Made by a program: the position numbers and the translations under genes. From an uncultured Geobacteraceae bacterium (lineage in GTDB: Bacteria; Desulfobacterota; Desulfuromonadia; Geobacterales; Pseudopelobacteraceae), in the NCBI GenBank assembly GCA_903845365.1, contig CAIMXI010000475.1:24912-88911 (forward strand): 64,000 nt of DNA. The letters run 5' to 3'. The stretch's first letter is position 1, and each line of letters opens with the position of its first letter. Of the stretch, positions 29,714 to 60,676 are shown in pieces. The notes under the pieces are model-generated. The model saw only the letters and a list, made by a program, of their open reading frames with translations. It made no database searches and was not told where the DNA came from.

Positions 29714-30925
29714 ATGGCGGATATGTTTTCATCATCAGGGGCGAATCCCTTTGCCGGTATCTACGATAATGTGCAGGCTCAGCGCAGCCAGATTGCCCAG
29801 TACGCCTTGAATAAAGCGGCAACTTACTGGAATGCCAAGAAACCGGACGAGGCGATTAAGGAATTTAAGAAGGTGTTGGCCTTTGACCCCCAAAATAAGG
29901 ACGCTTACTCCAGCCTGGGTAAAATTTACCAGAGTCAGGGAAATCTAACTGAAGCCATAAAATACTTTAAATTAGGGGTGCAGGCTGATCGTACCTCCGT
30001 AACTGCCCACAATAACCTTGGTAATGCCTATCTCCAGGCAAAGCAGTACACCGATGCGGAAAAAGAATTCAAAGCGTCTGCCCGAATGGATCCTATCAAT
30101 CCACTGGCTGATTATACTCTCGGTCTTCTCTACACCCAGACGGATCGTTTTGTCGAGGCCGAAGCACAATTCAACAAGGTAGCCAAAGTATCGCCCAGGG
30201 ATGGCAACGTTCCCTACAGTATGGGGGTTCTCTACAACAAGATGGGACGCCCGGAGGACGCAGCCAAACTGTTGGAAAAGGCACTCACGTTCAAGAAGGA
30301 TTTCCCGGCAGCAAACTATGAGCTTGGCGCCGCATATGTGAAAATGGGTGAAACCGACAAGGCTACAGAGCAGCTTAGTATCCTCAATACAAAACGATCC
30401 AGCTTTGCCAATGATCTGAGTTTTCTCCTCAATAAACCAAAAATGCTCTACATGAACGAGGTCAACAACCGTGGCTTCAGTCAGTCGTTAGGAGCCGTAA
30501 CTGGTGGTGTCCGAACTAAGCTCTCTCTCGACACGTCGTTTTTAAACTCAGGTGTTTTCAGCAAACAGGTCTCTGTGGCCATCCAGTTCAATAATGAAAT
30601 GGACATCACCTCAATCATGAATCCATCCAACTGGGAAATATCGAGAGCCAATAGTATGGAAGCGGGTTACTACAACAACTTCTTGGGGGTACCGTCTACT
30701 GAAGTAACAATTCCCAAACGTCCCTTCTCTGTTACCTACAATCCGTCAACACGTGAGGCGAGCGTAATATTTATCTTGACTCAGAATGCGAACAGTGATG
30801 CCACAATCGACCCGGAGCACCTTGTTTTCAAGTTTTCCGGCAAGGATGCATCCGGGCGACAGATGGACACGGCGGCTGATCAGATCGACGGCTATTCAGT
30901 TAGAATGTCAGGTAAAGCGTTCTGA
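29714..30925 (+). CDS. TPR-repeat protein with C-terminal beta-rich (Ig-like?) domain
   Basis: About 6 TPR motifs are present (…AYSSLGKIYQSQGNLTEAIKYFK…). AAAGGAG lies 6 nt before the ATG at 29714. No signal peptide is present. Confidence 0.7.
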   Translation: MADMFSSSGANPFAGIYDNVQAQRSQIAQYALNKAATYWNAKKPDEAIKEFKKVLAFDPQNKDAYSSLGKIYQSQGNLTEAIKYFKLGVQADRTSVTAHNNLGNAYLQAKQYTDAEKEFKASARMDPINPLADYTLGLLYTQTDRFVEAEAQFNKVAKVSPRDGNVPYSMGVLYNKMGRPEDAAKLLEKALTFKKDFPAANYELGAAYVKMGETDKATEQLSILNTKRSSFANDLSFLLNKPKMLYMNEVNNRGFSQSLGAVTGGVRTKLSLDTSFLNSGVFSKQVSVAIQFNNEMDITSIMNPSNWEISRANSMEAGYYNNFLGVPSTEVTIPKRPFSVTYNPSTREASVIFILTQNANSDATIDPEHLVFKFSGKDASGRQMDTAADQIDGYSVRMSGKAF

Positions 30926-30949
30926 TTTATCCGATACATGTCAGCGTAA

Positions 30950-30990
30950 CGGCAGAGGGGATTCAAGTAATGAATCCCCTCTGCCGTTTA
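30950..30990 (+). terminator. Rho-independent terminator
   Basis: 16-bp stem CGGCAGAGGGGATTCA-agtaa-TGAATCCCCTCTGCCG followed by TTTAT. Confidence 0.75.
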
Positions 30991-31070
30991 TCAAGGAATC
31001 CATTGCAAATAGCAAGCGACTATTGTAGAAACAGCTTGTTTATAAAATAATCTACTATCAGGGAGATGAT

Positions 31071-32633
31071 ATGAATAAGCTGACACTACATGGTCTGGTC
31101 GTAATTGAAGGGCGCGCCACATATGAGCGGATCGCCTCGGCAATCCGTGACATGGAACCGGATGAAACGCTTCGCCAGATTCAGAACTTCCTGAAAATAT
31201 ATCCTGAATTTGCACAGGCGCATAATGACCTGGCGGTGCTTTACTACCAGGCTGGCAACGGCATGAAAGCGCTGGCTCATTATGAAAAGGCTCACAAACT
31301 AGAACCGTCAAATATAACGTATCGTAAAAATCTGGCAGATTTCTATTTTATCGAACTCGACTGGACCGATGATGCCATCCAGACCTACCTTGACATCCTG
31401 AAAGATAACCCGTTTGACGTTGAAACCCTCAACGCCCTTGGCACTATCAGCAGTCAGATCGGTCGCCCCGAGCAGGCTCGCCAGTATTTTACCCGTACCC
31501 TGCAGTTGGATGTCGTTAACAGTCAGGCTCGCCAGGCTTTGCAGCAGTTGGGTGGGCAACTTCCAGCGCCGCCACAGCCGGCACAAATTCCCAACAAACA
31601 ACCAGAAGCGTATTCAACTCCTGCCGTGCGTCACCACCCCACTCCCGTTCAGCAGGCTGCCGTATTTCAGCCACCACATCAGGCACCACCCCAGACCCCG
31701 GAGAATCTTCACAGACAGGCTCTGGAATTGGCAAACTCCGGAAAGGCTGCGGAAGCGGTTCGCGGCTTGGAAACGCTGCTTGTGAGTTATCCCGAATATT
31801 CTGCTGCTCATAACGACCTGGGTGTACTGTACCAGCAGACAGGTGATCTGTCGCGAGCCCGCCGTCATCACGAAGAAGCATTGCGGCTGCAGCCAGCCAA
31901 TCAGATTTTCAAGAAGAACCTGGCTGATCTGCTCTATATTGCCTGTGGCGAAACCGAAGAAGCGATGAAGCTCTATGTCAATATACTCGGCAGCACTCCG
32001 CGCGATATTGAAACACTTAAGGCCATAAGCCGCATCTGCCTTGAAGTAGGACAAACCGACGATGCCCGGATGTTTCTTGATACCATCCTGAAAATTGAGC
32101 CCTGGAACAGTGAAGCACACAAATCACTTGCCGCTCTTTCAAGCGCGGAAAAACCTTTTTATTCATCACCCGCTAAAGTTCGCGCTCCTGATGATATATA
32201 TGCTGAAGTACAGCAGTTCATTCAGCAGGATCAACTGAGTGAAGCGTATATTCTGCTGGAAGAACTGGTTCGGAATAACAGCAGCAATGCACTCTTTCAT
32301 AACGATCTAGGCGTTCTCCGCTACCGTCGTGGCGATGTCAAAGGGGCACAAAGAGCCTACGAAAAGTCGGTTGAGTTGGAGCCGACAAACAGAAATTACC
32401 GCAAGAATATGGCCGATCTGTACTTTGCAGAACTGGGTATGACCGATGATGCCATCAACATATATCTCGATCTTTTCCGGCAGCAACCGAGAGACATTGA
32501 GGCTTTGGCCAGCCTGGGTCATATCAGTACCGCTGTCGGACGTCCGAATGAAGCAATATCATTTTATCGCCGGGCTCTGGAAATTGAGCCGTGGAACGCT
32601 GAGATCCGCGCCGCACTGCAAGGGGTGATGTAA
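31071..32633 (+). CDS. TPR-repeat protein built from three ~123-aa paralogous modules plus a P/Q-rich linker
   Basis: Modules at aa 36-158, 232-354 and 395-517 share YPE…AHNDLGVLY…A…EP.N…KNLADLY…DDAI..Y..I….P.D.E.L…. The linker at aa 160-212 is Pro/Gln-rich. Confidence 0.8.
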   Translation: MNKLTLHGLVVIEGRATYERIASAIRDMEPDETLRQIQNFLKIYPEFAQAHNDLAVLYYQAGNGMKALAHYEKAHKLEPSNITYRKNLADFYFIELDWTDDAIQTYLDILKDNPFDVETLNALGTISSQIGRPEQARQYFTRTLQLDVVNSQARQALQQLGGQLPAPPQPAQIPNKQPEAYSTPAVRHHPTPVQQAAVFQPPHQAPPQTPENLHRQALELANSGKAAEAVRGLETLLVSYPEYSAAHNDLGVLYQQTGDLSRARRHHEEALRLQPANQIFKKNLADLLYIACGETEEAMKLYVNILGSTPRDIETLKAISRICLEVGQTDDARMFLDTILKIEPWNSEAHKSLAALSSAEKPFYSSPAKVRAPDDIYAEVQQFIQQDQLSEAYILLEELVRNNSSNALFHNDLGVLRYRRGDVKGAQRAYEKSVELEPTNRNYRKNMADLYFAELGMTDDAINIYLDLFRQQPRDIEALASLGHISTAVGRPNEAISFYRRALEIEPWNAEIRAALQGVM

Positions 32634-32754
32634 GAGAAGTATACTCGGATCGTTAGGTGGCCTTTCCCCATTTTCTTTATTTTTTTCGGAACAGAAATTT
32701 CGGGATGTTTTAGATGTTTTTTTTGGTTCCAGCTCATCCGGGTTGGGAGGCATT

Positions 32755-34239
32755 ATGATAAATCCCAGAGTATGTTTTATAATACCTCCCTCTCCTTTTT
32801 TAAGCGATGAAAGAGTTTTTGTCAGCTTAGGGGTGCTCAAAGTTGTATCTGCCATCGAGAATACATACCCGGTTGATGTTCTTGATCTCTCTGGTGTTGC
32901 CAATTTTGAAGAAGTGGTCGAAGAATACATCTGTAGTAAACAAACCTCCATTATCGGCATTACAGTAACAACTCCACAACTGCCGGCAACGGTTTCAATT
33001 ATTAACACCATACGTCGATGCGCTCAAACCGTCAGAATTATTCTGGGTGGTCCTCATATGACCTTGGTATATGCGGCTTTTACTCGTGAACATGATAAAG
33101 GGATAAGTAGTAGGGCAACCGCAACCTTCCGTGAACTTGAAGAGTTGTCCGATGTGATTGTTGCAGGTGATGGTGAAAAAGCCATTTTTATTGCTTTGGG
33201 CCCAAACCCACCAAAAGTTATTAATGCGGATGATCCACATAGTCCGCTGTTTTTGCGCAATGATGATTTGAACAAAATGGCGTGGCCTGCAAGGCATCTC
33301 ATAGATGTAAACAGTTATCATTATTATATTGATGGCGAGCGAGCACTTAGTCTTGTTTCCCAGCTTGGTTGTCCGTTTGGATGTGGTTTTTGTGGGGGAA
33401 GGCTTTCTCCGTCACTTCGTCGTATGCGTAGCCGCTCTAAAAACAGTGTATTGGCTGAGATAGAACACCTTCACTCTACCTATGGTGTTAAGGGATTCAT
33501 GTTTTATGATGACGAACTGAATGTTAATCACTCACTTTTTACGGAACTATTGACGGGTGTGATAGAACTTCAGGATAGACTTGGAGTGGAATTCCGTCTA
33601 CGAGGTTTTGTAAAGTCTCAACTCTTCAATGAGAAGCAAGCACGATTGATGTATACAGCCGGTTTTCGCTGGATACTTACGGGGTTTGAGTCAGCTTCTC
33701 CAGAAATTCTGGTGAATATGAACAAAAAAGCAACCGTAGAGGAAAATACGCGTTGTGTAGAATTTGCAAGGGCAAACGGGCTTAAGGTAAAGGCTCTCAT
33801 GTCGCTTGGGCATCCTGGAGAGTCACATACAACTGCCGAAATGACGCGCAATTGGTTACTTCAAGTAAAACCTGATGATTTTGACATCTCATTGATTACT
33901 ATATATCCGGGTACTCCCTATTATGACGATGCGGTTCCACATCCGCAGTTGGAACACGTCTGGATATATACTTATAACGGTGCCAAGCTTTACAGTCGAG
34001 AAGTCGATTACCTAATAATATCTGACTACTACAAGGGTGATCCTAATATCGGTTATGAATCATTTGTTTATACTGACTATCTTCAACCGCACGAGATTGT
34101 CAGTTTAAGAAATGATATCGACCGTGACGTTAGAGAACAGCTAAATATTCCCCCTCCCTGCAGTATTCCAGCTATGCGTTATGAGCACAGTATGGGACAA
34201 ACTGGATTTCCTGCTACAATTTTGCGATCTTCTCCCTGA
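32755..34239 (+). CDS. B12-binding-domain radical SAM protein
   Basis: An N-terminal Rossmann-like B12-binding region (IIGITVTTPQL…ILGGPH) is followed by GCPFGCGFCGG (Cx3Cx2C). The ATG at 32755 is preferred. Confidence 0.8.
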   Translation: MINPRVCFIIPPSPFLSDERVFVSLGVLKVVSAIENTYPVDVLDLSGVANFEEVVEEYICSKQTSIIGITVTTPQLPATVSIINTIRRCAQTVRIILGGPHMTLVYAAFTREHDKGISSRATATFRELEELSDVIVAGDGEKAIFIALGPNPPKVINADDPHSPLFLRNDDLNKMAWPARHLIDVNSYHYYIDGERALSLVSQLGCPFGCGFCGGRLSPSLRRMRSRSKNSVLAEIEHLHSTYGVKGFMFYDDELNVNHSLFTELLTGVIELQDRLGVEFRLRGFVKSQLFNEKQARLMYTAGFRWILTGFESASPEILVNMNKKATVEENTRCVEFARANGLKVKALMSLGHPGESHTTAEMTRNWLLQVKPDDFDISLITIYPGTPYYDDAVPHPQLEHVWIYTYNGAKLYSREVDYLIISDYYKGDPNIGYESFVYTDYLQPHEIVSLRNDIDRDVREQLNIPPPCSIPAMRYEHSMGQTGFPATILRSSP

Positions 34240-34290: not shown

Positions 34291-37200
34291 ATGCCTGATA
34301 ATCCGAATACCGCTGTTTTTTTTAATAAACTATACTCAGGTACTTGGGAAATAAATAATTTCTCGAGTGAATGGTTGTATGAGGAAAGTGGCAGGCTTGC
34401 GTTTTACCAGAGATTAGCCATGTTGGATTTCTTTGACTGTAATGGTGCCATTCTCGATGTTGGTTGCGGTATGGGAGGGCTGTTCTCGACTCTGGCAAAT
34501 GACAAACGTCTGGATAAATTTGGTATTGATTTTTCGGATAAAGCGATCGAGATAATAAAAAAAAGGGTTAAAGGTGAGTTCGTTGTTGGGGATGTACATA
34601 CACTCCCATACGAAAACAACCGCTTTGACAGAATCATCTGTATTGAAACGCTAGAGCATGTCAGTTATCCTGACGTATTGATTAAGGAAATGATAAGAGT
34701 ATTGAAGCTCTCCGGCAAGATCCTGATTACCGTTCCCAATAAGGAAAACGATATATCCTCCGAAAATTGGCCGGGTGGAGTTAACCTGCATATTAATCAA
34801 TTCACCCCCGGCACATTGTCTCAGCTTATTTCTGATAATCATATGGTTGTAGAGTTTTGTGACGTAGTTGATGGCGTTATCCAGATTCAGGCTTGTTTAT
34901 CATCCCCGAAAGTTTTCATGATTGAATCTACCCTTGCCTGCAACCTGCGCTGCCCCGAATGTGCCATCGGCGGCAAACTGATTACCAGAAAGCAGCAAAT
35001 GATGAGCTTTGGTAGTTTTAAAATTCTCGCAGACAAAATAAAACCTTATGCCCAATTTCTCTATCCCTATATATGGGGAGAGCCAACGCTGAATTCCGAT
35101 ATTATTCCGATTCTTCGCTACGCTTCGACTTTCACCAAAACCAATATCAGCACTAACGGCATGTTCATGACTGAACTCCTTGCAGAAGAGTTAATAAAGT
35201 CAGGTGTCTCGAGTATTATTGTGTCTATTGACGGCTTGAGCCAAAATGTTTACGGACGGTATCGGATCGGTGGCGATGTGCAAAAAGTATGGACTGCACT
35301 GGAGGTGCTTCAACGATACAACCTAAAACATGGCAAACCTGTGGCCATAACCCCCCAATACATTGTTTTCCGTCACAACCAACATGAAATGGAGTCATTT
35401 GTGGTTCGATGTCGGAACTTAGGATTAGAACCAACATTCAAAGCGCCGTATCTCAGAGATAATTCTCGTTTCGAGTATTCTGACCGTACTGAGTATATCA
35501 GAACGCACTACCCGACAGAAGATGCGCTAAAATATGCCATGCGCGAATGTCCTGATGCTCGCTATACATTTACCATATTTGTGGACGGTTCTGTTGTGGC
35601 TTGCTGCTACGACCATGACAACGCGACCGTTTTCGGCAACCTGTTTGAACAGGATGTTGATGAGATCTGGAATAGCCCTCGTTATCGCCAGTTCCGATGG
35701 GATATGGTAACTGGGAATACACCAAAGTTTTGTACCGAGAACTGTCTGGCATACTACAGAGGGTCACCTGAACGGCATTGCTCAACGGCGGCAAATGCAG
35801 CTCAAGGTGTTGATATAACCTGTTCAGAAGCCAGTCTTCCTGCACAACGTGAAGACAACAGCGTAAGGATCTCTATGAAAAGAAAGAAAAATACAGATTT
35901 TCCGCTCGATGATCTTAATGCTGCTGTTAACTACGCCCGTAATTTATTCTGCAGTAATGACTATCAGTTGGCATTCGATCTCTATGAAAGTTTGATTGAT
36001 TATTGGCGAAACCATGCCATACCGCTACTGGCAGAGGTCTATGATCAGTACGAGACACTGCCGGACAAGGAAAGCCGATATTTGCTTTATCAGTCGCGCC
36101 ATTTTGACTTTAAAATTAGCCCTGGTGATAGGGTTCTGGATGTTGGCAGTGGACACATACCCTTCCAGCTTGCCACACATTTAACCGATATTTCTGTTAA
36201 CGATGATGGTGTCGGGCGTGCCGGCACCCCATTTAAACATCTGGAAGGTATACCGGTGTATGAGTGCAATGTTGAAAGCATGCCTTTCTCAGACAAAGAG
36301 TTTGATTTTGTATATTGCTCACATGTACTTGAACATACTAATAATCCGGAAGCGGCTTGTCGTGAGCTGATGCGAGTTGGTAAGCGAGGCTATATCGAGA
36401 CACCGAACAGAGGTAAGGATGCTTGGCTAAACATGGCCAAAACGAGTAATCACCGCTGGGCAGTGGAATGGGTAAACGAAACACTTATTTTTACAGAATA
36501 TACTCCAGAGGAGAAGGAAGGACTGGGTAACGACATTTTGATGAGTATGCACTGCTCACCGCAGACCCCTCGTGAGAAAGCTTTTTCGGCGTTGATATAT
36601 CTCAAGGCACCATTGGTCAACACAATGTTTTGTTGGAATGACTCATTTCGGTTTGAGGTTAGACATTGCATTTCTGCTCCCAATCTCGATAGTGTTGATC
36701 ATGGCAACGCTACATGGCAGAAAACCATGAATCTTCCGAGCGTTAAGCTCTACGCTGGTGACATGCCAGAAATGGATCAGTATATCGGCTGGGTTGGCCT
36801 CTCAATATCGAAGAGTGATCATCGGCACATCCTTCATGACGTCACCCGACCTTTTCCCATTCCAGACAATTCGGTGGATGCCTTCCAAGCAGAAGACGTA
36901 CTTGAACACATACCTTACGATCAACTGCTCACGGTATTGAATGAGATATATAGAGTTCTCAAGCCGAGAGCTCTTTTCCGACTTTCCGTGCCCGATTACG
37001 GTTGCGACGTTCTTCAAGAGCGCTCCCTCAAAGATTCCTATGGAAAAATAGTATTTGATCCTGGTGGTGGCGGAACCGTTGAATTCCCCGGGCACGTATG
37101 GTTTCCAAGGATTGATAATGTTCGAAAACTTATAAACGAATCATTGTTTGCCATATTCGGGCGGGTTGACTATCTGCACTACTACAATATGGACGGTTCC

Positions 37201-40200
37201 TTCGTTGTAAAACCGGTGGATTATGCAATAGGACACGTTGACAGGACTCCAGATCACGATGATAGGGTAAAGTCGCCGTATCGTCCTATGTCGATGATTA
37301 TTGATCTTGTCAAGGCTGCTGGCAAAGGGTTCTGTCTCTTTATCAATACCTATTACGGTGCCTTTTTGAGCAAAGCCTATTCTCAATACTCCGACTTGGG
37401 CGACAAACATTATAAAGAACAACTACAACAGCTCGTCGATTGCCACTTCGGCGACAGTGACTTCTATTCAGGAAGGCTTAAAGACGCTGGCTGGAATGCT
37501 GACGATCTGATAGTCAACTGCGAGCCATTGCAGTTGGCCTGGGCACGCGAAAACGAGACAAGCTATGAAGGTCAGGATCTGGTTGTTGAACAAGTAAAAC
37601 TTGCGAAACCCGATTGTATTTATCTGCAAAATCTTGGTCTGGGCACAAAGGAGTTTCTTTCCGCAATCAGGCCTTACACCACTTTGATCCTCGGCCAGAT
37701 TGCATATCCATTACTAGAGCAAACAGATCTGTCTGGTTTTGACATCATCTTTTCATCGTTTCCCCACTTTGTTGACAGATTCCGCGCGGCAGGTATTACC
37801 GCATATTACCAGCCTCTGGCCTTTGAACCACGCATCCTGAAATCGGTGACAAAATTTGCTTTTAGCCAGCGCCCGGTTGAATGTTCGTTCGTCGGGGGAA
37901 TTTCTCCTATGCACGGCAAAGGGTACCAACTTCTTGAAACGCTCGCAACACATGTTCCGATCGACTTTTGGGGATATGGTGCCGTGACATTGCCGCCTGA
38001 CTCCGCTATCAGAGCACGTCATCATGGCGAGGTGTGGGGAACCGAGATGTTTTATCTCCTGGGTGCCTCGAAAATAACGATTAACCGTCATATCGACGTA
38101 GCAGAAAACAACGCCAATAATATGCGATTGTTTGAGGCAACTGGTTGCGGTGCATTGCTTATAACCGATTACAAGGACAATCTTAGCGAACTATTTGAAA
38201 TTGGAAAAGAAGTTGTAGTGTACCGCTCCCCTGAAGAATGTATCGAGCTTGTAAGATATTATCTGGCCCACTCCAAAGAAGCGGAAGAAATTGCTAAGGC
38301 CGGACAGGCACGTACGCTCCGTGATCATGTCTATGAAAAACGGATGAAGCAAACGGCAAAGCTTATGTCACGACATCTAAGGTATCGCCGGGAGCAGGGA
38401 ACGTTGCATTTTCCGGAAAGGATTTCGGATGGCTATCAGGGACTTTCTGCCGCTGACGTAACACCTAAACTTGAATCTGCCTGGAAAAGCCCTGATATTC
38501 CTCGACAGCAAAGGGCATTAGTTCAGCAGCAGCTAATGGAGATGTATCTAGGCAATATACCAGAGCCATTCAAGGTATTGAGTGATCTTTTGTTGCCGCT
38601 CGCACACGCGGGGATTTCAATTTTAGAAATTGGCTGTGCTAGCGGATACTATTGCGAAGTTCTTGAGTATCTTCTGAAAAGACAGCTTGACTACACCGGA
38701 GTGGACTATTCCTTGGCCATGATTGATATGGCCAGAGATTATTACCCGGAAGCTTCCTTCCTCACTGCGGACGGAGCCAAGCTTCCGATTGCAGACAAAA
38801 CGTTCCGGATTGTCGTATCCGGTTGTGTGCTTTTGCATACTCCAGCATATGCCCAACATATTGCCGAGACAGCTCGCGTGGCAGAACAGTGGATCGCAGT
38901 CCACCGAACGCCGGTCTGCCGGACGCGCCCGACGACTTGCTATACAAAAATGGCCTATGGCGTTGAAACCGTGGAATTCAGGTTCAACGAACAGGAACTA
39001 CTCTGGCTTTTTGAGCAGGAGGGCTTCAAACCTGCGAAGGTCTGCACCTATCTGGAGCGCCAAGAGAATGATGAGTACGAGGCGAGCTATCTGCTGGAAA
39101 GAGTCCAGCAACTGGTTGGCATTAAACTGCCTTTGGCATCGCCTCCCATCCGGCCATTATTAGTGCTCAACCGGCCTGTAGTACTGGTTTCGCGAGCAAT
39201 TGCCTATACCTTCCCGCTCTCCTATGCCTACCTTGCCGGACAACTGCGCTCACAGGGAGAAGATGTCAGGGTGCTTTTCAAGGATATTCCTCCTCAGGCA
39301 CTGGTGAAACAGATCATGGATCTGAACCCGCTTATTGTTGGATTCGGCAATCTGTATCCAGAACTAGCAGAAACAAAGACTCTGATCCGGATGCTTGACG
39401 CAGTCGGAAGAAAGTTTCCTATTGTCATCGGTGGCCAGATGGTGAGCCCGACGCCAGAATTTGCCGTCAGAATTACCGGAGCTGATTTTGGCGTTATTGG
39501 TGAAGGGGAGCTTATACTCGGGGAACTCGTCAAACGGCTCAGGAATGGCCAGGATATCTCTGACCTTAAGGGTCTTGTTATTAGAGACGGAGCATATATT
39601 CAAAACAACGGTCCCGGGCCTTTCATAGAAAATCTTTCTTCGGGGCTGCCATCAATCCCCTATGAACTTTTTCCTACGGAACAGTGGCTACCGATCGGTG
39701 AATGGTATGCCAAAAACATCCCTGTACCACACTGGAAAATTGACGATCGGGTTATCAATGTGCATGGCGGTAGAGGCTGTCCGTTCACCTGTAACTTTTG
39801 TTATCATCACAGCAAGGCTCGCTATCGCGACGTTTCGGTTATGATGGACGAAGCTCAGGAAGCGCTCATACGTTTCAATGGCAATATGCTCTACTTTTCT
39901 GATGATCTTGTCATGGCAAACCCCAAGCGGGCCCGAGAATTAATTGATGCCATATGGAAGTTGGATAGGCCGGTTTCGTTCCAGATATCAACTAGGTTTG
40001 ACATCCTTGCAAGAATGGATGATGAAATGCTGCGTGACCTGAAGCGGGCGGGTTGTCGAAGTATGGGGCTTGGCCTTGAGTCCGGTTCAGACCGTATCCT
40101 GAAGATAATCGGCAAGAACTGTACCGCACAACAGATAGAAGAGGGGCTTGAGCGTCTTCGCCTTGTGGGCATATACCCGACGACCTCAATAATGCTGGGG

Positions 40201-40524: not shown

Positions 40525-40626
40525 TGCTTTGTTTTTCAGCAGTTAATCCGCAATAGATTTTGCTTGTTGCTTTTGAATACCATAAATGCAAAACACCCAC
40601 AAAATAATCGTATCCAGGGGTTTAAT

Positions 40627-41532: not shown

Positions 41533-41561
41533 AATAGTTGTCTAGGAAAAAAGGGAATTTC

Positions 41562-50149: not shown

Positions 50150-50161
50150 ACCGACTACCCC
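50136..50161 (+). other. Perfect 11-bp hairpin with the stop codon of the preceding gene in its loop, followed by a C7 run
   Basis: GGGGTAGTCGG-TAAA-CCGACTACCCC. The C-run spans 50158-50164. Only a weak T-tract follows (cttgtttt). Confidence 0.5.
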
Positions 50162-50200
50162 CCCTTGTTTTACAGTAGCTGTGGCAAATATATTGCTGAC

Positions 50201-53035: not shown

Positions 53036-54181
53036 ATGCAATATCTGTATAGAATTAAGGAGAACCTCCGTTGCGCCCTTAATTTATTACAATTGACAGA
53101 AAATCAAGGTAACATCGCCGGAATGAATAGCTGCCTGAGTCGTCTCGGAGATATGCTGTTGTTCTACCGTATGAACTGGGATCTTTCCGAAGATTGGGTA
53201 TATGAAGAGATGATTAAAATCCTAAAAGAACCGGCTGACTTAATGATCGCTGCCGCCATGGATTGTGAAAAGCGATTATTAAGTGAAGCTGCGGCTCAAT
53301 TTGTTAATGCGGCATATCTTATTAGTTCAGGGTCTCAACATAAAACTATTGCAGCCAGCTACTGTCGAAAGAGCGGAAATATAAAAAAGGCTCGCAAGAT
53401 CTGCCTTGAATTGAGCACGCAACAACCGGAAAATCAGACTGTCTTGTCTGAATTGTTTTCATGCGATGTCGCCGAACGATTCTGGCCGCTTGACTACTAT
53501 CATCTGTTGGCGGAAATTCATCGCAAGTGGCCGCCACGTGTCTATATAGAAATCGGTGTCGCAACCGGCAAATCACTTGCATTGACCGGCACCAGTACAC
53601 GTTCGCTCGGTATAGACCCATCTACGGCCAGCCAGGAACATTTTCACTATAATTCTCCCGAAAACGATCCACATCTATATAAAATGACCAGTGATGATTT
53701 CTTTGCAAACTGCGATGTTATTAAAGAGATGGGACGACCACACTTTGACGTCGCTTTCATTGACGGACTTCATCATTTCGACCAGGTGTTACGTGACTTC
53801 ATCAATCTTGAAAAATTCGCAGGGCCAGACTCCATAATTTTGATTCATGACGGTCTGCCGATAAATGCCCGCGTTGCAGTCCGGGAGCCATCCACTTGGT
53901 TCTGGACCGGAGATGTCTGGAAGGCAATACCTTGCCTGTTGGCCATCAGACCTGACCTTGAGATTATCACACTTCCGGCTTCCCCTTCAGGACTTGCCCT
54001 GATTCGCCGTTTGGATCCTTCCTCACATATTCTGGAGCGACAGTACGACAGTCTGGTTCAGCACTTTGCTGCTCTTGAACTTCCTAATGACTGGAGTGAG
54101 CGCTGCACAATGCTTAACGTTCAGGTGGATCAGGCTGCCTTTAATCTGGCTGACTACCTACCACCGGAAGGATGGTCATGA
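53036..54181 (+). CDS. Helical N-domain + class I SAM-dependent methyltransferase (Methyltransf_24/CmcI-like)
   Basis: VYIEIGVATGKSLAL…VAFIDGLHHFDQVLRDF…ILIHD. A GGAGG RBS is present. Confidence 0.6.
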   Translation: MQYLYRIKENLRCALNLLQLTENQGNIAGMNSCLSRLGDMLLFYRMNWDLSEDWVYEEMIKILKEPADLMIAAAMDCEKRLLSEAAAQFVNAAYLISSGSQHKTIAASYCRKSGNIKKARKICLELSTQQPENQTVLSELFSCDVAERFWPLDYYHLLAEIHRKWPPRVYIEIGVATGKSLALTGTSTRSLGIDPSTASQEHFHYNSPENDPHLYKMTSDDFFANCDVIKEMGRPHFDVAFIDGLHHFDQVLRDFINLEKFAGPDSIILIHDGLPINARVAVREPSTWFWTGDVWKAIPCLLAIRPDLEIITLPASPSGLALIRRLDPSSHILERQYDSLVQHFAALELPNDWSERCTMLNVQVDQAAFNLADYLPPEGWS

Positions 54182-56862
54182 ACGTCGCAATGCCTCATGG
54201 TACTACCCACGGCTGGGGGATCGCCGGAAACTATCTGACGGCTGAGATAGCAAAACTGCCGCCGATTCCGGATGTGACTCTGCACTGCGTGGCTGGGCAC
54301 CATTTTGTGGCAAGTGATGAGGCACAGTGGAACCGCTTCAATATCGGTTACTGTTTTTTCGAGTATGAGATTCTCGCCTATCGCTACATTCCGGAAGCGG
54401 CCAAACGGTGGGATCATATCGTTGCAGGATCAAGCTGGTGCGAACATCACCTTCGCATTGCGGGGATGGAGAGCACCTCAACCGTCCTGCAAGGGGTTGA
54501 TCCGGCAATATTCCATTCATTGCCGCCTCGTCAGGATGATGGTCGTTTCATCGTCTTTTCGGGAGGGAAATTCGAGTTCCGCAAAGGACATGATCTGGTC
54601 ATTGCTGCCATGCAGATTTTCATGGCCAGACACCATGATGTCTGGCTCGCCTGCGCCTGGCACAACCATTGGCCGAATTCAATCAGGACAATGGAGCAAT
54701 CCCGTTGTATCAAGTTTCAATATAGGGATCTCCCATGCGACCAACTTTACTCCGGCTTGATCTCTACTAATGGTATCGATCCGGCCCGTGTCATACTCTA
54801 CCCTGTGATGGAAAACCATCTTATCAAGTCGGTATATGCCAACAGCGATGTCGGACTGTTTCCCAATCGTTGCGAGGGGGGCAACAACATGGTGATGTGT
54901 GAGTACATGGCCTGTGGCAGGCCGGTCATAGCTTCGACCATGACCGGACATCGTGATGTTGTCGCACGTGAGCATGCCCTTTGTCTGCAGAGCTACGAAC
55001 CGGTTCTGGCGCGTATCGGTAATGATATTGCCGGTGTCTGGTTTGAGCCGGCTCTTGAGGAGATAATCGCACTTCTGGAACAGGCATATTGCGACAGACA
55101 GATGCTTCAGGGTGTCGGCAAAGCTGCAGCTATGGCAATGACACGGCTATCCTGGTCTGGTGCCGCCCGGAATTTTCATGCTCTTGCCGATCAACTGGCT
55201 AAGCCACATCGTGCTGCTGCCGTTTCGACTCTACCGGAAGATCCTGAACTGCTGTTTGCTGCCGGGTGCTTCGCCGAAGCAGAAAAAGGGTTCCGCACTC
55301 TGCTGGAGAAGTCTCCCTTTGATCCGGAACTTTACAACAGTCTGGCGACAACTCTTGACCGGCTAGAGAGGTATGGCGAAGCTGCCTGGTATTATGAAAA
55401 GGCTCTGGCTCTTCGCCCAAGTTTTTTTATTGCCCGCTTTAACCTTGCCAATACATTGAAACGGCTTGGGGATTGTGGAGCTGCCATTGAAAATCTCGAG
55501 CTTGCAGTTGCCGAAGAGCCGAAATTCGTTGCGGCCTGGCAGAATCTTGCCCTCTGTTTTTTTGACGGGGGAAATCTGCATCGAGCCGTTGAGTGCCAGG
55601 AGCGGGCTGTTCTTTTGGAGCCTGACTGCACGAAAAGCAGAATAGACCTGGGCGATATGCTTATGGAGCTGGGTCGTTATCAGGACGCTATAACATGTTT
55701 TGATGAGGTGCTGGCTTCAACACCTGATAACGCTGGAGTACTCAATTCCAAGGGGATGTCCTTGCAGGATCTTGAAGATCTTGACGGCGCCGAGACCTGT
55801 TACCGTCGGATACTGGAGGACGATCCTGGTAATACGGAGGCGCTCAACAACCTGGGTACCATTCTCCGTTCGCGCGGCATGCCACTTCAGGCAATCGACT
55901 ATTTTGACCGTGCCCTGCAGGAAGTACCTGGTGATGGACAATTGATATTTAACCGTTCACTGGCCAGGCTCACGCTGGGAGATTTTCAAGCAGGGTGGCA
56001 GGATTATGAAAGCAGATTTTCACTGGCTGGCCCTGTTAAACTGAACCATCCGGATCTGCCGCGATGGCATGGCGAACCGTTGGGTGGTAAAACCCTGTTG
56101 GTGCAGGCCGAGCAGGGGTACGGAGACACACTGCTGTTTGCTCGTTATTTACCGTTGCTGAACCGTTTCGGAGGTTCTGTGCTGTTTGAGGCACAGGATC
56201 ATTCCATAAAATTGGCGATTGATCGTATAGACCCGTCAGTTACCGTTATTGACAGAGGAGAACAACTTCCGGAAGTAGACTGTCAGGTGCCGTTACTAAG
56301 TCTGCCGTTGATCTTTAATACTGATTTCGCCACGATTCCCTTCCCCAACGGCTATCTATTTCCGGATTACGATAGAAAAAAAGGATGGGATCAGTTTCTG
56401 GGCTCATCTGACCGACGGATGAGGATCGGCCTTGTGTGGGGTGGCAGAAAACCTCGCCTGAATGCAAACCGCTCCATGCGATTACAGGATATGCTGCCGA
56501 TACTGCAGGTTAAAGGACTTCGCTTTATCAGCCTTCAGACAGGTGATGATGCTGCACAGTCGTCTGAATTCGGCGGGCTTGTTGAGGATGTTATGCACAA
56601 GGTGACCAGTTTTGCCGATACCGCAGCACTTGTTGCGACGCTGGATCTGGTCATATCAGTCGACACTGCCGTGGCGCATCTGGCTGGCGCACTAGGTGTT
56701 AATACCTGGGTTTTGCTGAAATATGCTTCTGACTGGCGCTGGTTTCTGGAACGCGATGACAGCCCTTGGTACTCCTCTATGAGGCTCTTCCGCCAGGAGG
56801 TGACGGGAGAGTGGAGCGCGCCTGTTACCCGGATTTTGGAGGCTTTAAAAAAGCAGTCATAA
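54172..56862 (+). CDS. GT4 glycosyltransferase + TPR + GT9-like tri-domain protein
   Basis: The GT4 module is at aa 1-~345 (FSGGKFEFRKGHDL…FPNRCEGGNNMVMCEYMACGRPVI). TPRs occupy aa ~350-600. The GT9-like tail reads W.DYESRF…LPRWHGEPL…VQAEQGYGDTLLFARY…VDTAVAHLAGALGVNTWVLLKYASDWRW…SPWYSSMRLFRQ. Confidence 0.8.
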   Translation: MVMNVAMPHGTTHGWGIAGNYLTAEIAKLPPIPDVTLHCVAGHHFVASDEAQWNRFNIGYCFFEYEILAYRYIPEAAKRWDHIVAGSSWCEHHLRIAGMESTSTVLQGVDPAIFHSLPPRQDDGRFIVFSGGKFEFRKGHDLVIAAMQIFMARHHDVWLACAWHNHWPNSIRTMEQSRCIKFQYRDLPCDQLYSGLISTNGIDPARVILYPVMENHLIKSVYANSDVGLFPNRCEGGNNMVMCEYMACGRPVIASTMTGHRDVVAREHALCLQSYEPVLARIGNDIAGVWFEPALEEIIALLEQAYCDRQMLQGVGKAAAMAMTRLSWSGAARNFHALADQLAKPHRAAAVSTLPEDPELLFAAGCFAEAEKGFRTLLEKSPFDPELYNSLATTLDRLERYGEAAWYYEKALALRPSFFIARFNLANTLKRLGDCGAAIENLELAVAEEPKFVAAWQNLALCFFDGGNLHRAVECQERAVLLEPDCTKSRIDLGDMLMELGRYQDAITCFDEVLASTPDNAGVLNSKGMSLQDLEDLDGAETCYRRILEDDPGNTEALNNLGTILRSRGMPLQAIDYFDRALQEVPGDGQLIFNRSLARLTLGDFQAGWQDYESRFSLAGPVKLNHPDLPRWHGEPLGGKTLLVQAEQGYGDTLLFARYLPLLNRFGGSVLFEAQDHSIKLAIDRIDPSVTVIDRGEQLPEVDCQVPLLSLPLIFNTDFATIPFPNGYLFPDYDRKKGWDQFLGSSDRRMRIGLVWGGRKPRLNANRSMRLQDMLPILQVKGLRFISLQTGDDAAQSSEFGGLVEDVMHKVTSFADTAALVATLDLVISVDTAVAHLAGALGVNTWVLLKYASDWRWFLERDDSPWYSSMRLFRQEVTGEWSAPVTRILEALKKQS

Positions 56863-56868
56863 AAAGGC

Positions 56869-56895
56869 TAAAGTTTACGAGACGCTCGCCGATAG
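56869..56895 (+). promoter_or_regulatory. Sigma-28 (FliA) promoter upstream of flagellin
   Basis: TAAAGTTT-N11-GCCGATAG compared with the enterobacterial consensus TAAAGTTT-N11-GCCGATAA, a single mismatch. It lies ~70 nt upstream of the flagellin ATG. Confidence 0.75.
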
Positions 56896-57776: not shown

Positions 57777-57812
57777 TCGTAAACGAAGAGGACGCGTCAA
57801 TTTAAACCTGAG

Positions 57813-57845
57813 CGGGGAGAGGGCAACCTCTCCCCGTTTGCATAT
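57813..57845 (+). terminator. Intrinsic terminator after flagellin
   Basis: CGGGGAGAGG-gcaa-CCTCTCCCCG followed by TTTGCATATTTT. Confidence 0.6.
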
Positions 57846-57868
57846 TTTATAATTGTGAGGTGATTACT

Positions 57869-58504
57869 ATGAGAATCGAGGGTAACGATCAGAGACTGGC
57901 GGCGGTAACAGCCACCCAGATGCAGAACACCGGAACCCAGCAGATGCTGGCATCGAAATACGTCCAGGAGCAGGAGGCCCAAAAGGTGAGCAAAGATTAC
58001 TCGCCGCAGCCGATAGCAGGTGATAGAGTTTCTATTAATGTCGAACTTCCTAAGAGCACTGTTGATACGTTGCAGAAAATGGGCAATATCTCGGATTTCC
58101 TCAATACGACCGCCGTCAATCTTCGTCAGACAAATGAAGGTCTGCAGGCAGCCGCCAGTATTATTACTGATATGAAGAGTTCTATGGATCAGATTATCAA
58201 GAACTATCCACCGTATTCAGTTGAAAGTCAGGCGCGCATAGATTTGTTAATGAATTTTTCGTCGCTAAAAAAGCAGATACAGAGTCTCGAGATTCCCGCG
58301 CCCCCCCCCCCGTTTTATGAAGTTGTCAAGCATCTCTGGGCGGATCTCTTCGCCGAAGTGGATAAAAAGCTCCAGACGCCTACTCTGCCGAGTGATGCCT
58401 CGGATGCTCAAGTTGCTGCGGCCGCTAAACAGTTAGACGAGATTGCAAGTAACATCAGTAATGTTCAGGATACTATGAGTAATTATTTAGCGAACGGCGG
58501 CTGA
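57869..58504 (+). CDS. Hypothetical flagellin-locus protein (211 aa) carrying a C11 tract
   Basis: GTGAGG lies 8 nt upstream of the ATG at 57869. The protein is Gln/Ser-rich and no family was recognised. It sits between flagellin and flbT. Confidence 0.55.
   Translation: MRIEGNDQRLAAVTATQMQNTGTQQMLASKYVQEQEAQKVSKDYSPQPIAGDRVSINVELPKSTVDTLQKMGNISDFLNTTAVNLRQTNEGLQAAASIITDMKSSMDQIIKNYPPYSVESQARIDLLMNFSSLKKQIQSLEIPAPPPPFYEVVKHLWADLFAEVDKKLQTPTLPSDASDAQVAAAAKQLDEIASNISNVQDTMSNYLANGG
58301..58311. repeat. C11 homopolymer inside the coding sequence (encodes PPPP)
   Basis: gcg ccc ccc ccc ccg, counted by hand. Confidence 0.9.
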
Positions 58505-58506: not shown

Positions 58507-58905
58507 ATGCCACTCTCCCTGACCTTAAAGCCGGGAGAGCGGGTGATTCTGGCCGGGGCGGTGATAAAAAACGGCTCTTCAGTCGCTCATCTGCAGATAG
58601 AAAACCGTGTGACGCTCCTCCGGCAAAAGGATGTTCTGACTGAACAGGAGGCTACATCTCCCTGTAAGAAAATATATTTTGTAGTTCAGTTGATGTATGT
58701 TGGCGATGGCTTGACTTCAGAGCTTGCTCAGGTGTACTGGGATCTGGTTCGGGATGTGCTTGCAGCCGCTCCGAGCACAAAAGAGTTGATTTCTCAGATA
58801 AGCGCGTATATTGTCGGGGCCGATTTTTATCCGGCTCTTAAAGTGGCCAAGAAACTGATTTCCTACGAAGAGGAGCTTATTAGTTATGTCTCAAAACCAG
58901 CTTAA
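58507..58905 (+). CDS. flbT: Flagellin synthesis repressor FlbT
   Basis: MPLSLTLKPGERVILAGAVIKNG…LLRQKDVL…IYF.VQLMY…KLISYEEE closely follows the FlbT pattern known from Caulobacter. Confidence 0.8.
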   Translation: MPLSLTLKPGERVILAGAVIKNGSSVAHLQIENRVTLLRQKDVLTEQEATSPCKKIYFVVQLMYVGDGLTSELAQVYWDLVRDVLAAAPSTKELISQISAYIVGADFYPALKVAKKLISYEEELISYVSKPA

Positions 58906-59266
58906 CGCCTATACAGCCGTACAGAAGGAACATTTGAGTGGGAGGGAGTTGGAGGCTTCCGTCCTCTCTAGAGCTGGCCTGATGTTGAAGAGTGTCAAAG
59001 AAAATTGGGGCGCGCCTGATCGGGATCGTAAGTTGCTGGAAGCTGTTAAGTTTAATCAAAAGGTCTGGAGCTTTTTCCAGGCGGAGCTTTCTGACCCCGA
59101 AAATCCGCTTCCCAAAAACCTGCGCGAAGACATTCTGAACCTGAGTATCTTTGTTGACAAGCGACTGTTTGAAGTTATGGCGTACCCGAACCCCGAAAAA
59201 CTTGCTATCATCATTGATATCGATTTCAATATTGCCGCAGGTTTGAGGGCAGCTCCAGTGCAGTAA
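58886..59266 (+). CDS. flaF: Flagellin synthesis regulator FlaF
   Basis: …AYTAVQKE..SGRELEASVLSRAGL.L… and N.KVW..F……P.NPLP..LR..I.NLS.FV are FlaF-like. It overlaps the flbT end by 20 nt. Confidence 0.75.
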   Translation: MSQNQLNAYTAVQKEHLSGRELEASVLSRAGLMLKSVKENWGAPDRDRKLLEAVKFNQKVWSFFQAELSDPENPLPKNLREDILNLSIFVDKRLFEVMAYPNPEKLAIIIDIDFNIAAGLRAAPVQ

Positions 59267-59288
59267 ACGAAACTGACATCTTGTTGCG

Positions 59289-59322
59289 AAAAAATCCTTT
59301 GTGGCGACTCAAAGGATTTTTT
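59289..59322. terminator. Bidirectional terminator hairpin between flaF and the convergent TPR-GT9 gene
   Basis: AAAAAATCCTTTG-tggcgact-CAAAGGATTTTTT. Confidence 0.7.
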
Positions 59323-60676
59323 TATTGCTGCGCGAAAATGTTTCAAGAGCAGATTTCACTCTGGTTATGACATCACTCCAATCACCAGGCTGTTTTTGTC
59401 TAAAAATTAGCGTGCTCGGGTACCATGGCGAGTAGTTCCGCTCCAGCAACCAGCGCCAATCGGGGGCAAACGGAATCATAAGATACAGCTCTTTGCCAAT
59501 TGCACCGGCCAGGTGGGCAACCGCAGTATCAATAGTTATTACAAGATCAAGCTGCTCTATCAGCGCAGCGGTGTCAGCAAAGTCATCAATCTGACCGGTA
59601 AGATCCACCATATCCATACCGAATGGCGAACAGGCTTTCTCTCCGAGTTGCAGTGAAAAAAAAGTGACGTTCTTCACGGATAGTAGCGGGGCAAGCTCCG
59701 CGAAACAACAGGAGCGGAGCGGATCTGGATATTTTTTACCGACCCAGACCAGGCCGACTCGTCTGTTTTCCGGATAAGCGGACATGAGTGCAGACCATTT
59801 CAGGCGCAGTTCCTCACTTGCAGAGAGGTATTGATACGCTGACGGAATGGTCTGCAGCGTGGTGCCAAAAATACCTGCTAATGAGAGCAGCGGCGCTTGA
59901 GTGCTGAATGGCGGAAGAGCTGCCCCGAAAGGGGCGACGGAGTGAACGGCAGGCAGGCCTTGAAAGAGTAGCACAAGCTGCGGATGACACTCTATGATAA
60001 CCACGCCGCCACGCGCCGCAACCAGCGGAGCATAGCGGATGAACTGTATGGCGTCACCGAAGCCCTGCTCAGCATGCAGCAGGATAGTTTTACCTTCCAA
60101 AGGTGAGCCGTCCCAGAGCGGGATGTCAGTATGACGGCATGGAGAAGTGAAATCAGGCTTTTGCCAACGCCATTCGTACTCCCGCCACCCCTCCTCGTAC
60201 CGTCCCTGAAGCAGCAGGTTCAAGGCGAGATTCCAATGGGCTGCGGCAAAAGCGGGATCGAGCAGGATTGCTCTGCGGCACTCTGCTTCTGCTTCAATAA
60301 TTTTCCCCAGCGCCTGCAGCGCGGTGGCGCGTGCAGCGAGAGGAACCGGAGATGTCGTTAAAATCGACGCTGCCTGTAAAAAAGAGTCGGCTGCTTCGGA
60401 AAAAAGGCCGAGCGCCAGCAAAGTATTTCCCAGATTATTATGTGCCTCCCCCATACCAGGCGCAAGGCCTAAAGCCTCCCGATAACAGGCAGCCGCCTCC
60501 TGATAGCGTCCCAATTCGTGCAAAGCAGTACCGGCATATAGATGGAGAGTCGCATTTGAACGATCCAGAACTAAGGCGCTCTGGAAACGCACCAGCGCCT
60601 CATTGGAATTCCCTCCCCGCAATAACGTGGAGCCTTCCATGAACATCTGCTCTATCTGATTGCTGCTATCATTCAT
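59309..60676 (-). CDS. TPR + GT9-like fusion protein (third paralogue)
   Basis: TPRs occupy aa ~1-160. They are followed by W.EYEWRW…IPLWDGSPL…LHAEQGFGDAIQFIRY…IDTAVAHLAGAIGKELYLMIPFAPDWRW…SPWYPSTLIFRQ. The start lies 12 nt after the ilvA stop. Confidence 0.75.
   Translation of the reverse strand: MNDSSNQIEQMFMEGSTLLRGGNSNEALVRFQSALVLDRSNATLHLYAGTALHELGRYQEAAACYREALGLAPGMGEAHNNLGNTLLALGLFSEAADSFLQAASILTTSPVPLAARATALQALGKIIEAEAECRRAILLDPAFAAAHWNLALNLLLQGRYEEGWREYEWRWQKPDFTSPCRHTDIPLWDGSPLEGKTILLHAEQGFGDAIQFIRYAPLVAARGGVVIIECHPQLVLLFQGLPAVHSVAPFGAALPPFSTQAPLLSLAGIFGTTLQTIPSAYQYLSASEELRLKWSALMSAYPENRRVGLVWVGKKYPDPLRSCCFAELAPLLSVKNVTFFSLQLGEKACSPFGMDMVDLTGQIDDFADTAALIEQLDLVITIDTAVAHLAGAIGKELYLMIPFAPDWRWLLERNYSPWYPSTLIFRQKQPGDWSDVITRVKSALETFSRSNKKIL

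Follow-up and report, generated by a model that had tools for sequence, protein, structure and literature searches.

A flagellin-adjacent gene island of Geobacterales, rich in glycosyltransferases linked to tetratricopeptide repeats and in radical SAM enzymes, as a probable flagellin modification system

The locus described here raises the question of what some 27 kb of glycosyltransferase (GT), methyltransferase and radical S-adenosylmethionine (SAM) enzyme genes do directly upstream of a flagellin gene. It lies in a 64 kb stretch of DNA from an uncultured Geobacteraceae bacterium (contig CAIMXI010000475.1), below called the window, to which the counts of presence and absence apply unless other loci are named. 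We consider it probable that the block is a flagellin post-translational modification island, in which cytoplasmic GTs tethered to tetratricopeptide repeats (TPRs) O-glycosylate flagellin and the glycan is methylated and tailored by radical SAM enzymes. Such a system would most likely be an uncharacterised form of flagellin glycosylation that is ordinary within its clade.

Fifteen plus-strand genes (29714-56862, ~27 kb) lead into a flagellin-FlbT-FlaF unit, and one extra TPR-GT gene lies on the minus strand beyond it (59309-60676). The spacing among the 15 genes ranges from -14 to 145 nt, and the last of them stops 104 nt 5' of the flagellin gene, in the same orientation. The four start/stop overlaps named in an earlier note on this DNA were all found (45608/45611, -4 nt; 47259/47272, -14 nt; 47963/47966, -4 nt; 54172/54181, -10 nt), and the open reading frame (ORF) positions given there agree with the ORF map. 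Modules were counted by scanning the proteins, whole and in segments, with Pfam and NCBIfam, and gene content was compared by tblastn in 69 loci (1.36 Mb) from species-representative genomes scanned with the 896-amino acid (aa) protein of the island; single loci are cited by number (L011 and the like). The island has the following features, SDR standing for short-chain dehydrogenase/reductase and NDP for nucleoside diphosphate.

29714..30925, plus strand: TPR protein with a 170-aa C-terminal domain (TPR409), the island's first gene; Pfam TPR_1 4e-31, C-terminal domain without Pfam match; homologues in 27 loci
31071..32633, plus strand: TPR-only protein, 520 aa (TPR520); Pfam TPR families; homologues in 32 loci
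32743..34239, plus strand: B12-binding radical SAM enzyme, 498 aa; PF04055 2.5e-19, PF02310 4e-8; CPFGCGFC at 33370-33393
34291..40524, plus strand: 2077-aa fusion of methyltransferase, radical SAM/SPASM, methyltransferase, partial methyltransferase, CgeB-like GT, methyltransferase and B12-binding radical SAM modules
40564..41532, plus strand: 322-aa protein; FkbM-like methyltransferase match weak and under the cut-off (PF05050 E 2e-3)
41538..42557, plus strand: NDP-sugar epimerase/dehydratase-type SDR, 339 aa; PF01370 2e-48
42647..43696, plus strand: GT8-like glycosyltransferase, weak match (PF01501 6e-5)
43704..45611, plus strand: TPR + GT41 protein of the OGT/SPINDLY type, 635 aa; PF13844 1.4e-55; SPINDLY 9e-112 over residues 112-631
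45608..47272, plus strand: TPR protein with a GT9-like C-terminal domain (46400-47272), from Pfam and segment scans
47259..47966, plus strand: small GT-A-like protein, 235 aa, weak match (PF11051 5e-4); 85% identical homologues in L011 and L019
47963..50149, plus strand: 728-aa protein of an N-terminal 340 aa without a family match in the segment scan, a class I methyltransferase (PF08241 6e-14) and an FkbM methyltransferase (PF05050 1e-18)
50136..50161, either strand: 11-bp G+C-rich hairpin, terminator-like on both strands, ending the strain-variable cassette and overlapping the stop codon of the 728-aa gene
50165..51052, plus strand: protein of ~285-295 aa, start probably ATG 50201 or 50210; no match in Pfam or NCBIfam; homologues in 6 loci
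51063..53015, plus strand: CgeB-like GT + GT2-like module, 650 aa; PF13524 2.5e-25, PF00535 4e-4; conserved core
53036..54181, plus strand: Methyltransf_24 methyltransferase, 381 aa; PF13578 1.6e-11; in 26-28 loci
54172..56862, plus strand: GT4 + TPR + GT9-like protein, 896 aa; conserved gene directly 5' of flagellin, in the same place in L001, L002, L004, L007 and L010-L021
59309..60676, minus strand: TPR + GT9-like protein, 455 aa; AlphaFold2 model with pLDDT 93.4; conserved position

The inventory of the earlier note was largely borne out. There are two TPR proteins without a GT (29714-30925, with its extra C-terminal domain, and 31071-32633), four TPR-GT fusions (43704, GT41, 189 bits; 45608, GT9-like; 54172, GT4 + TPR + GT9-like; 59309 on the minus strand, GT9-like) and a single sugar-nucleotide SDR, whose PDB and NCBIfam matches scatter over GalE, UXS, RmlB, LegB and tyvelose epimerase and single out no one specificity. 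The six further GT modules comprise two CgeB-type Glyco_trans_1_2 modules (1e-35 and 2e-25), one GT4 (4e-10) and three weak ones (GT8-like 6e-5, GT2-like 4e-4, small GT-A-like 5e-4). Each of the three radical SAM modules has the CxxxCxxC motif, two with a B12-binding domain and one with SPASM. The methyltransferases had been overcounted: eight modules were detected, not at least nine, and one of the eight is partial and one sub-threshold (the 2077-aa protein has four, the partial one among them, the 728-aa protein a Methyltransf_11 and an FkbM, the 381-aa protein a Methyltransf_24 and the 322-aa protein the sub-threshold one, an FkbM). Two are FkbM-like rather than three.

A hydrophobic-stretch check found no membrane segment in any of the 20 proteins of the island and the flagellin unit, and the block contains no flippase, polymerase, exporter or initiating transferase, which argues against a polysaccharide cluster and for cytoplasmic protein modification. 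The presence of many GTs and methyltransferases beside one SDR would also suit the synthesis of a cell-surface polysaccharide (lipopolysaccharide (LPS) O-antigen, capsule or exopolysaccharide) instead of the modification of a protein, and methyltransferases of the FkbM and Methyltransf_24 types occur in O-antigen clusters as well. We nevertheless regard that explanation as extremely unlikely, since not a single membrane protein is encoded, whether Wzx/Wzy, an ABC exporter, an initiating phosphoglycosyltransferase or a ligase, four of the GTs are fused to protein-binding TPR domains, and the locus has flagellar synteny and promoter motifs.

The flagellin unit into which the island leads and the promoter-like site in front of the island have the following features.

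29622..29648, plus strand: sigma-28-type promoter-like site 5' of the island's first gene; 2 mismatches, -35 TGAA not TAAA, -10 CCGATAA
56967..57776, plus strand: flagellin, 269 aa; 28.08 kDa unmodified, 21.6% Ser+Thr; segment 136-195 variable and Ser/Thr-rich
57809..57840, plus strand: terminator-like hairpin of 14 pairs, 3' of flagellin
57860..58504, plus strand: conserved 214-aa protein (about 210 aa in relatives) between flagellin and flbT; in 39 loci; no Pfam, NCBIfam or PDB match
58507..58905, plus strand: FlbT, flagellin translational regulator; PF07378 9e-37
58886..59266, plus strand: FlaF, flagellin secretion chaperone/regulator; PF07309 6e-33

The flagellin gene, described in the earlier note as driven by sigma-28, is preceded by a match to that promoter type with one mismatch (TAAAGTTT-N11-GCCGATAG, 56869..56895, plus strand), the distance of which is conserved in relatives. 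When the DNA 5' of the TPR409 homologues was aligned, a conserved cTAAAcAA-N12-CCGATA appeared, which fits the sigma-28 consensus. In the 69 loci, searched on both strands, TAAA-N15-17-CCGATA was found 33 times, compared to 6.65 in shuffles; 19 of these matches are directly 5' of TPR409 homologues (as TAAA-N16-CCGATA), 9 are before flagellin and 4-5 elsewhere. These motifs give in-silico support for co-regulation of the island with late flagellar genes, the minus-strand TPR-GT not being covered. Sigma-54 promoters in the island were considered and rejected, TGGCAC-N5-TTGCW occurring at chance level (35 matches, 37.7 expected), as such sites do over the window as a whole. One sigma-54-like site with one mismatch, TGGCAAATATATTGCT, is present at 50182-50197, 20 nt past the 50136-50161 hairpin and just before the next ORF. 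Similarly, the C11 tract at 58301-58311 in the gene of the 214-aa protein was rejected as a phase-variable homopolymer in the Campylobacter style: it encodes PAPPPPF (PPPP). The tract is of equal length in two independent assemblies (L001 and L002) and is interrupted in L010.

A comparison across related genomes, as suggested in the earlier note, found both ends of the island and the flagellin unit to be syntenic across the 69 loci, all of which are from Geobacterales, including Geobacter, Geomonas, Trichlorobacter, Pelotalea, Oryzomonas and Citrifermentans. Flagellin homologues are abundant in this order, with 67-83% identity among the best 120 matches listed. The constant frame consists of the GT4-TPR-GT9-like protein (~900 aa), flagellin, the ~210-aa protein, FlbT, FlaF, the minus-strand TPR-GT9-like protein (~460 aa), ilvA and trxB, and the genes farther 5' of the GT4-TPR-GT9-like protein vary among the relatives. 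At the left border the order molybdopterin oxidoreductase-TPR409-TPR520 is found again in L028, L030 and L040. Copies of the GT9-like domain number 139 in 49 of the 69 loci, with as many as five in succession, and those of the GT41 catalytic domain number 58 in 35 loci. Homologues of the 650-aa CgeB/GT2 protein are present in ~48-50 loci, a count over 75 loci giving about 50.

As judged from these gene orders, the island is a conserved frame with a swappable middle. The left frame is TPR409-TPR520 and the right frame is the CgeB/GT2 protein, the Methyltransf_24 protein and the GT4/TPR/GT9 protein, followed by flagellin. The middle (~32.7-50.15 kb) contains both radical SAM genes and the lowest-GC genes of the island (41-43.5% GC), ends at the 50136-50161 hairpin and differs in content between genomes, its right-hand third (43.7-50.1 kb) being common to the closest relatives, L011 and L019. 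The AT-richness pointed out in the earlier note is real and modest, the island having 47.2% GC and the flanks 50.5% and 50.2%. There are no tRNA genes or Rfam elements in the window, the island borders included. No long direct or inverted DNA repeats were found at 27-62 kb. The TPR-GT paralogues are taken to be old rather than recent duplicates.

The four TPR-GTs, which would glycosylate flagellin itself, are of two kinds. The 635-aa protein is a true GT41 (PF13844, 189.1 bits against a cut-off of 25), and the solved enzymes matched are SPINDLY (8.8e-112), T. terrenum OGT (6e-81) and human OGT (5e-67). The other three (45608, 54172, 59309) have a 290-aa C-terminal domain in common, for which a PDB sequence search gave no relatives. 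With Pfam Glyco_transf_9 (gathering threshold 22 bits) the whole proteins score 19.4, 21.1 and 20.5 and the isolated domains 21.3 and 23.0, the match covering only ~30 residues. In the AlphaFold2 model of the 455-aa protein (pLDDT 93.4) helical repeats (residues 1-172) are followed by two Rossmann-like halves, and overall a TPR superhelix is joined to a GT-B fold, resembling the SPY/OGT architecture. When the domain was modelled alone (pLDDT 90.1), Foldseek returned 3tov (E 4e-9, TMq 0.66), WaaF 1psw (1e-6, 0.64), TibC (7e-6, TMq 0.55) and WaaC (3e-5). On the model, then, the 290-aa domain has a GT9 fold, with the LPS heptosyltransferases and the protein heptosyltransferase TibC as its nearest neighbours. 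Like these enzymes, it bears motifs of the type GD...DT/SxxAHLAxAxG. No heptose pathway genes were found in the window; these would be housekeeping LPS genes sited elsewhere.

With more than 4298 matches the GT9-like TPR family is a very large one, and NCBI gives its members the name 'tetratricopeptide repeat-containing glycosyltransferase family protein'. Its members occur also in non-flagellar contexts and taxa, and one might accordingly suppose that the island modifies other proteins, or is part of a general cytoplasmic protein glycosylation, and that its place beside flagellin is incidental. The minus-strand 455-aa gene would fit this idea: it begins 12 nt past ilvA on the same strand, an arrangement kept in L010, L011, L017 and L019, and is therefore probably co-transcribed with ilvA. 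We think this explanation improbable, as the synteny with flagellin spans the whole order, the sigma-28-type motif is concentrated at the island's first gene and at flagellin, and the block holds no other candidate substrate gene. Chromids of Azospirillum have up to 11 TPR-GT9-like copies per replicon, beside FkbM/class I methyltransferases, GT4, GT2 and transposases, and on the Azospirillum ramasamyi plasmid NZ_CP029835.1 (L079) there is no flagellin within the 30 kb viewed around the copies. Because flagellin is mostly absent beside the GT9-like copies of plasmids, chromids and metagenomes, specificity for flagellin is not claimed for the family as a whole.

As to the sugar, the earlier note saw no pse/leg/neu genes and no Maf, and in both it was right. 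Six-frame tblastn of the whole window at E 1e-3 was empty for NeuB, cytidine monophosphate (CMP)-transferase, NeuC-type epimerase, DegT, PglD-like and NTP-transferase queries, and the window proteins scanned have no match to Pfam PF03102 or PF02348. None of the 69 related Geobacterales loci has a homologue of NeuB, CMP-transferase or NeuC-type epimerase, and no nonulosonic-acid gene was seen in 80 metagenome loci of the GT9-like family. Pfam MAF_flag10/DUF115 matched none of the island proteins or segments; of these, the 295-aa protein and the first 340 residues of the 728-aa protein match no family. To call such genes the usual cores of flagellin glycosylation islands, as the earlier note did, is an overgeneralisation, given that in Pseudomonas, Burkholderia, Listeria (GmaR) and Clostridioides difficile flagellin is glycosylated without nonulosonic acids, flagellin-linked GTs, some with TPRs, building deoxyhexose, amino-sugar or methylated glycans. 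None of these four systems is, to our knowledge, known to combine GT9-like TPR arrays with B12 and SPASM radical SAM modules. The clade-wide lack of nonulosonic-acid genes near flagellin favours, without proving it, a glycan free of nonulosonic acids.

Caution on this point is called for by a locus with nonulosonic-acid genes (L009), by the Caulobacter precedent, where the TPR-GT FlmG uses pseudaminic acid (PMC7591256), and by the fact that 64 kb of the genome was seen. Flagellin could be glycosylated with a nonulosonic or keto-acid sugar (pseudaminic, legionaminic or Kdo-like) made by genes elsewhere, in which case the TPR-GT9-like proteins would be of the FlmG class with a CMP-activated donor, and the island would be for transfer and tailoring only. 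The compact GT-B domain of FlmG is ~290 aa long (residues 309-596), the same size as the GT9-like domain, and FlbT/FlaF control is found in Caulobacter as well. The metagenome scaffold L009 (1-21185) has a complete NeuB-type (legionaminic-acid-like) cluster with CMP-transferase, PglD and NTP-transferase. After it come a B12 radical SAM gene, a gene of 457 aa and a methyltransferase gene, then a homologue of the fusion protein with 2336 aa and a double TPR-GT41 gene of 1374 aa. This GT neighbour is, however, a GT41 and not GT9-like, the closest structures to the GT9-like domain use ADP-heptose and not CMP-sugars, and the nonulosonic-acid genes are missing from the window, the Geobacterales loci and the metagenome GT9-like loci alike. 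A nonulosonic-acid glycan is thus rather unlikely in our opinion.

The radical SAM enzymes bear on what else may be done to the glycan. PF02310 and PF04055 occur together in the 498-aa enzyme (32743-34239) and at residues 1633-1983 of the 2077-aa protein, and these two modules are, by their domain composition, class B (B12-binding) radical SAM enzymes. No specific function was assigned to them, because the NCBIfam equivalog scores are far under the cut-offs. Among solved structures the SPASM module comes closest to BtrN and BlsE and the two B12 modules to AprD4 (4e-11 with the 498-aa enzyme), and BtrN, BlsE and AprD4 all act on sugars. The 2077-aa protein is real, since its exact sequence was found on 7 contigs, and rare, 5.8 billion proteins yielding 51 relatives at E up to 1e-20. 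Its modules reappear among the relatives in other orders and fusions. One relative lies beside an SDR and a DegT aminotransferase, and another beside a sugar C-methyltransferase, an SDR, a GT2 and a transposase, 4,6-dehydratase-type SDRs being among the relatives' neighbours. The neighbours of a 1925-aa homologue in L084 (40-18163) are a sugar C-methyltransferase (Methyltransf_13/14), two DegT aminotransferases, a formyltransferase, an SDR and three B12 radical SAM genes of their own, a dense set with the appearance of a pathway to an extensively tailored amino-deoxy sugar. Pelotalea chapellei (L025, 16420-22104) has the modules of the fusion protein as separate blocks in a different order, and the SDR beside them is 84% identical to that of the window, compared to 53-65% for the neighbouring genes, which hints at a recent exchange of that cassette.

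It could be argued that these enzymes modify residues of flagellin directly, the methyltransferases by N- or O-methylation and the B12/SPASM radical SAM enzymes by C-methylation or cross-linking. Peptides are frequent substrates of SPASM and B12 radical SAM enzymes, the weaker NCBIfam matches include C-methyltransferases of ribosomally synthesised and post-translationally modified peptides and the glutamine methyltransferase of methyl-coenzyme M reductase (MCR), and lysine methylation of flagellin is known in Salmonella and Shewanella. The flagellin of the window, on the other hand, contains only 8 lysines, and a GT module shares one polypeptide with radical SAM and methyltransferase modules. 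The sugar C-methyltransferase, DegT aminotransferases, formyltransferase and 4,6-dehydratase-type SDRs adjoining the fusion relatives, that is, NDP-sugar genes, together with the sugar-acting nearest structures (BtrN, BlsE and AprD4 being the best solved matches), favour tailoring of a glycan or nucleotide-sugar. Direct residue modification thus appears very improbable. The earlier note had linked the block to flagellin and proposed either a different, heavily methylated glycan or direct protein modification chemistry; the link is upheld by the synteny, the sigma-28 motif and the soluble proteins, and direct modification is less supported, given the relatives among NDP-sugar enzymes.

The domains, the solubility, the gene order, the promoter motifs and the fold described above are observations; that flagellin is the substrate, the sequence of reactions and the kind of glycan are inferred. 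For flagellin glycosylation by the island, the following course can be proposed. The substrate would be flagellin that is unfolded or free of chaperone, modified in the cytoplasm before its FlaF-assisted export. Flagellin would be bound by the TPR domains of the four TPR-GTs (one GT41 of the OGT/SPINDLY type and three GT9-like), and the two stand-alone TPR proteins may likewise bind it, as adaptors. In FlmG and Maf-1 the flagellin-binding modules are TPR domains (PMC7591256; bioRxiv 10.1101/2023.12.03.569772), and as in these proteins the TPRs would offer Ser/Thr residues in the exposed centre of flagellin to the GT-B domains joined to them. Potential acceptor sites are many, with Ser and Thr making up 21.6% of flagellin and its variable centre being Ser/Thr-rich. 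The glycan would then be extended by the untethered GT modules (GT4, two CgeB-like, GT2-, GT8- and GT-A-like), and its sugars methylated by the eight SAM methyltransferase modules. The SDR and the three radical SAM modules may make or tailor an unusual sugar (e.g. deoxy, C-methyl or oxidised), either on the nucleotide-sugar or on the growing glycan.

Several observations weigh against this interpretation. In the literature searched there was no experimental evidence of modification for any Geobacterales flagellin, no paper on Geobacter flagellin glycosylation and none tying radical SAM enzymes to flagellin glycosylation islands. Of 36 long metagenome loci with the GT9-like TPR family, only 3-4 have flagellin, FlbT or FlaF nearby, and the Azospirillum, Ralstonia and Burkholderia copies sit away from flagellin. 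One member of the proposed system, the minus-strand TPR-GT, appears to be co-transcribed with a housekeeping gene, ilvA. In addition, the -35 element of the island's putative sigma-28 promoter is degenerate in the window (TGAA), the radical SAM modules match sugar enzymes only weakly (E 1e-5 to 4e-11), and three GT assignments and one methyltransferase assignment fall under curated thresholds.

Among known systems, FlmG of Caulobacter crescentus and Brevundimonas subvibrioides is similar in its described architecture. Like the island TPR-GTs, FlmG is soluble and cytoplasmic and has an N-terminal TPR region and a compact C-terminal GT-B domain, and its flagellin is short (~270 aa) and under FlbT/FlaF control. 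The domain limits of FlmG are given as 1-313 and 309-596, the latter described as 'GT-B', and the logic of this class is modular, the TPR binding the acceptor and the GT selecting the donor (PMC7591256; bioRxiv 10.1101/2022.03.25.485807). FlmG, however, transfers pseudaminic or legionaminic acid, a pathway seen neither in the window nor in the 69 related loci, and the island has four TPR-GTs of two catalytic families together with many extension and tailoring enzymes. OGT and SPINDLY (GT41), which are cytoplasmic, protein-directed GTs with N-terminal TPRs, are clear homologues of the 635-aa protein; the latter differs in being bacterial, in its shorter TPR array and in its place in a flagellin locus. 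WaaC, WaaF and TibC share the fold of the 290-aa domain and are without TPRs, in contrast to the island proteins. TibC, a member of the BAHT family which heptosylates serines of autotransporters, is a precedent for cytoplasmic Ser glycosylation by a GT9 fold. The Maf/nonulosonic islands of Campylobacter, Helicobacter, Aeromonas and Shewanella are similarly flagellin-adjacent and variable between strains, with cytoplasmic glycosylation before export, TPR recognition of flagellin in Maf-1 and methylated glycan variants. In place of Maf (MAF_flag10/DUF115), NeuB/PseI/LegI and CMP-nonulosonate synthetase, the present island has GT41 and GT9-like enzymes.

Mechanistic knowledge of flagellin glycosylation covers just two transferase classes, Maf and FlmG, both tied to nonulosonic acids. 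To judge from the locus, an entire order of environmentally important metal reducers may rely on another toolkit, in which GT9-fold and GT41 enzymes tethered to TPRs form arrays within a conserved frame that has a swappable cassette. If so, a function would be given to a very large family now named only 'TPR-containing glycosyltransferase family protein', sugar tailoring by radical SAM enzymes would be added to protein glycan chemistry, and modular, soluble, acceptor-specific GTs would become available for glyco-engineering. The sigma-28 motif before the island's first gene is a directly testable regulatory link, and the same frame is present in several cultured relatives, namely Pelotalea chapellei DSM 13688, Trichlorobacter thiogenes ATCC BAA-34, Geomonas oryzae S43, Citrifermentans bremense R1 and Oryzomonas japonica Red96. 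A more far-reaching proposal, which we make tentatively and hold to be on balance doubtful, is that TPR + GT9-fold proteins are a very large family of cytoplasmic protein O-glycosyltransferases, and that in Geobacterales sigma-28-co-regulated arrays of them with GT41 build a nonulosonic-acid-free, multiply methylated flagellin oligosaccharide with sugars tailored by B12/SPASM radical SAM enzymes, a chemistry so far unreported for flagellin glycans.

The surroundings of the island are of a different kind. Exact-sequence matches assign the window to a Desulfuromonadales bacterium: TrxB and the 728-aa methyltransferase cluster with proteins annotated as from Desulfuromonadaceae or Geobacteraceae MAGs, and 111 kb is the length of the longest contig with these proteins. 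The first 29.5 kb of the window are housekeeping genes (MoaB, IspF, PrfA, PF00977 histidine biosynthesis, NrfCD-type complexes, CoaBC, Tol proteins and MiaA), and ilvA and trxB come 3' of the island. At its border the molybdopterin oxidoreductase gene (27573-29584) is interrupted where a G8 tract lies (28544-28551), its two halves forming overlapping ORFs that differ in frame; the gene is in a single frame in L028, L030 and L040, and the split reflects either a pseudogene with a frameshift or an error of assembly. The stretch from miaA to the oxidoreductase encodes a 247-aa protein (25622-26365) with a signal-like N-terminus and a HEMGH zinc-protease motif, which matches no NCBIfam family, and a 387-aa low-complexity, coiled-coil-like protein (26397-27560). 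A further homopolymer, a C10 tract (G10 on the coding strand), lies within miaA at 25046-25055.

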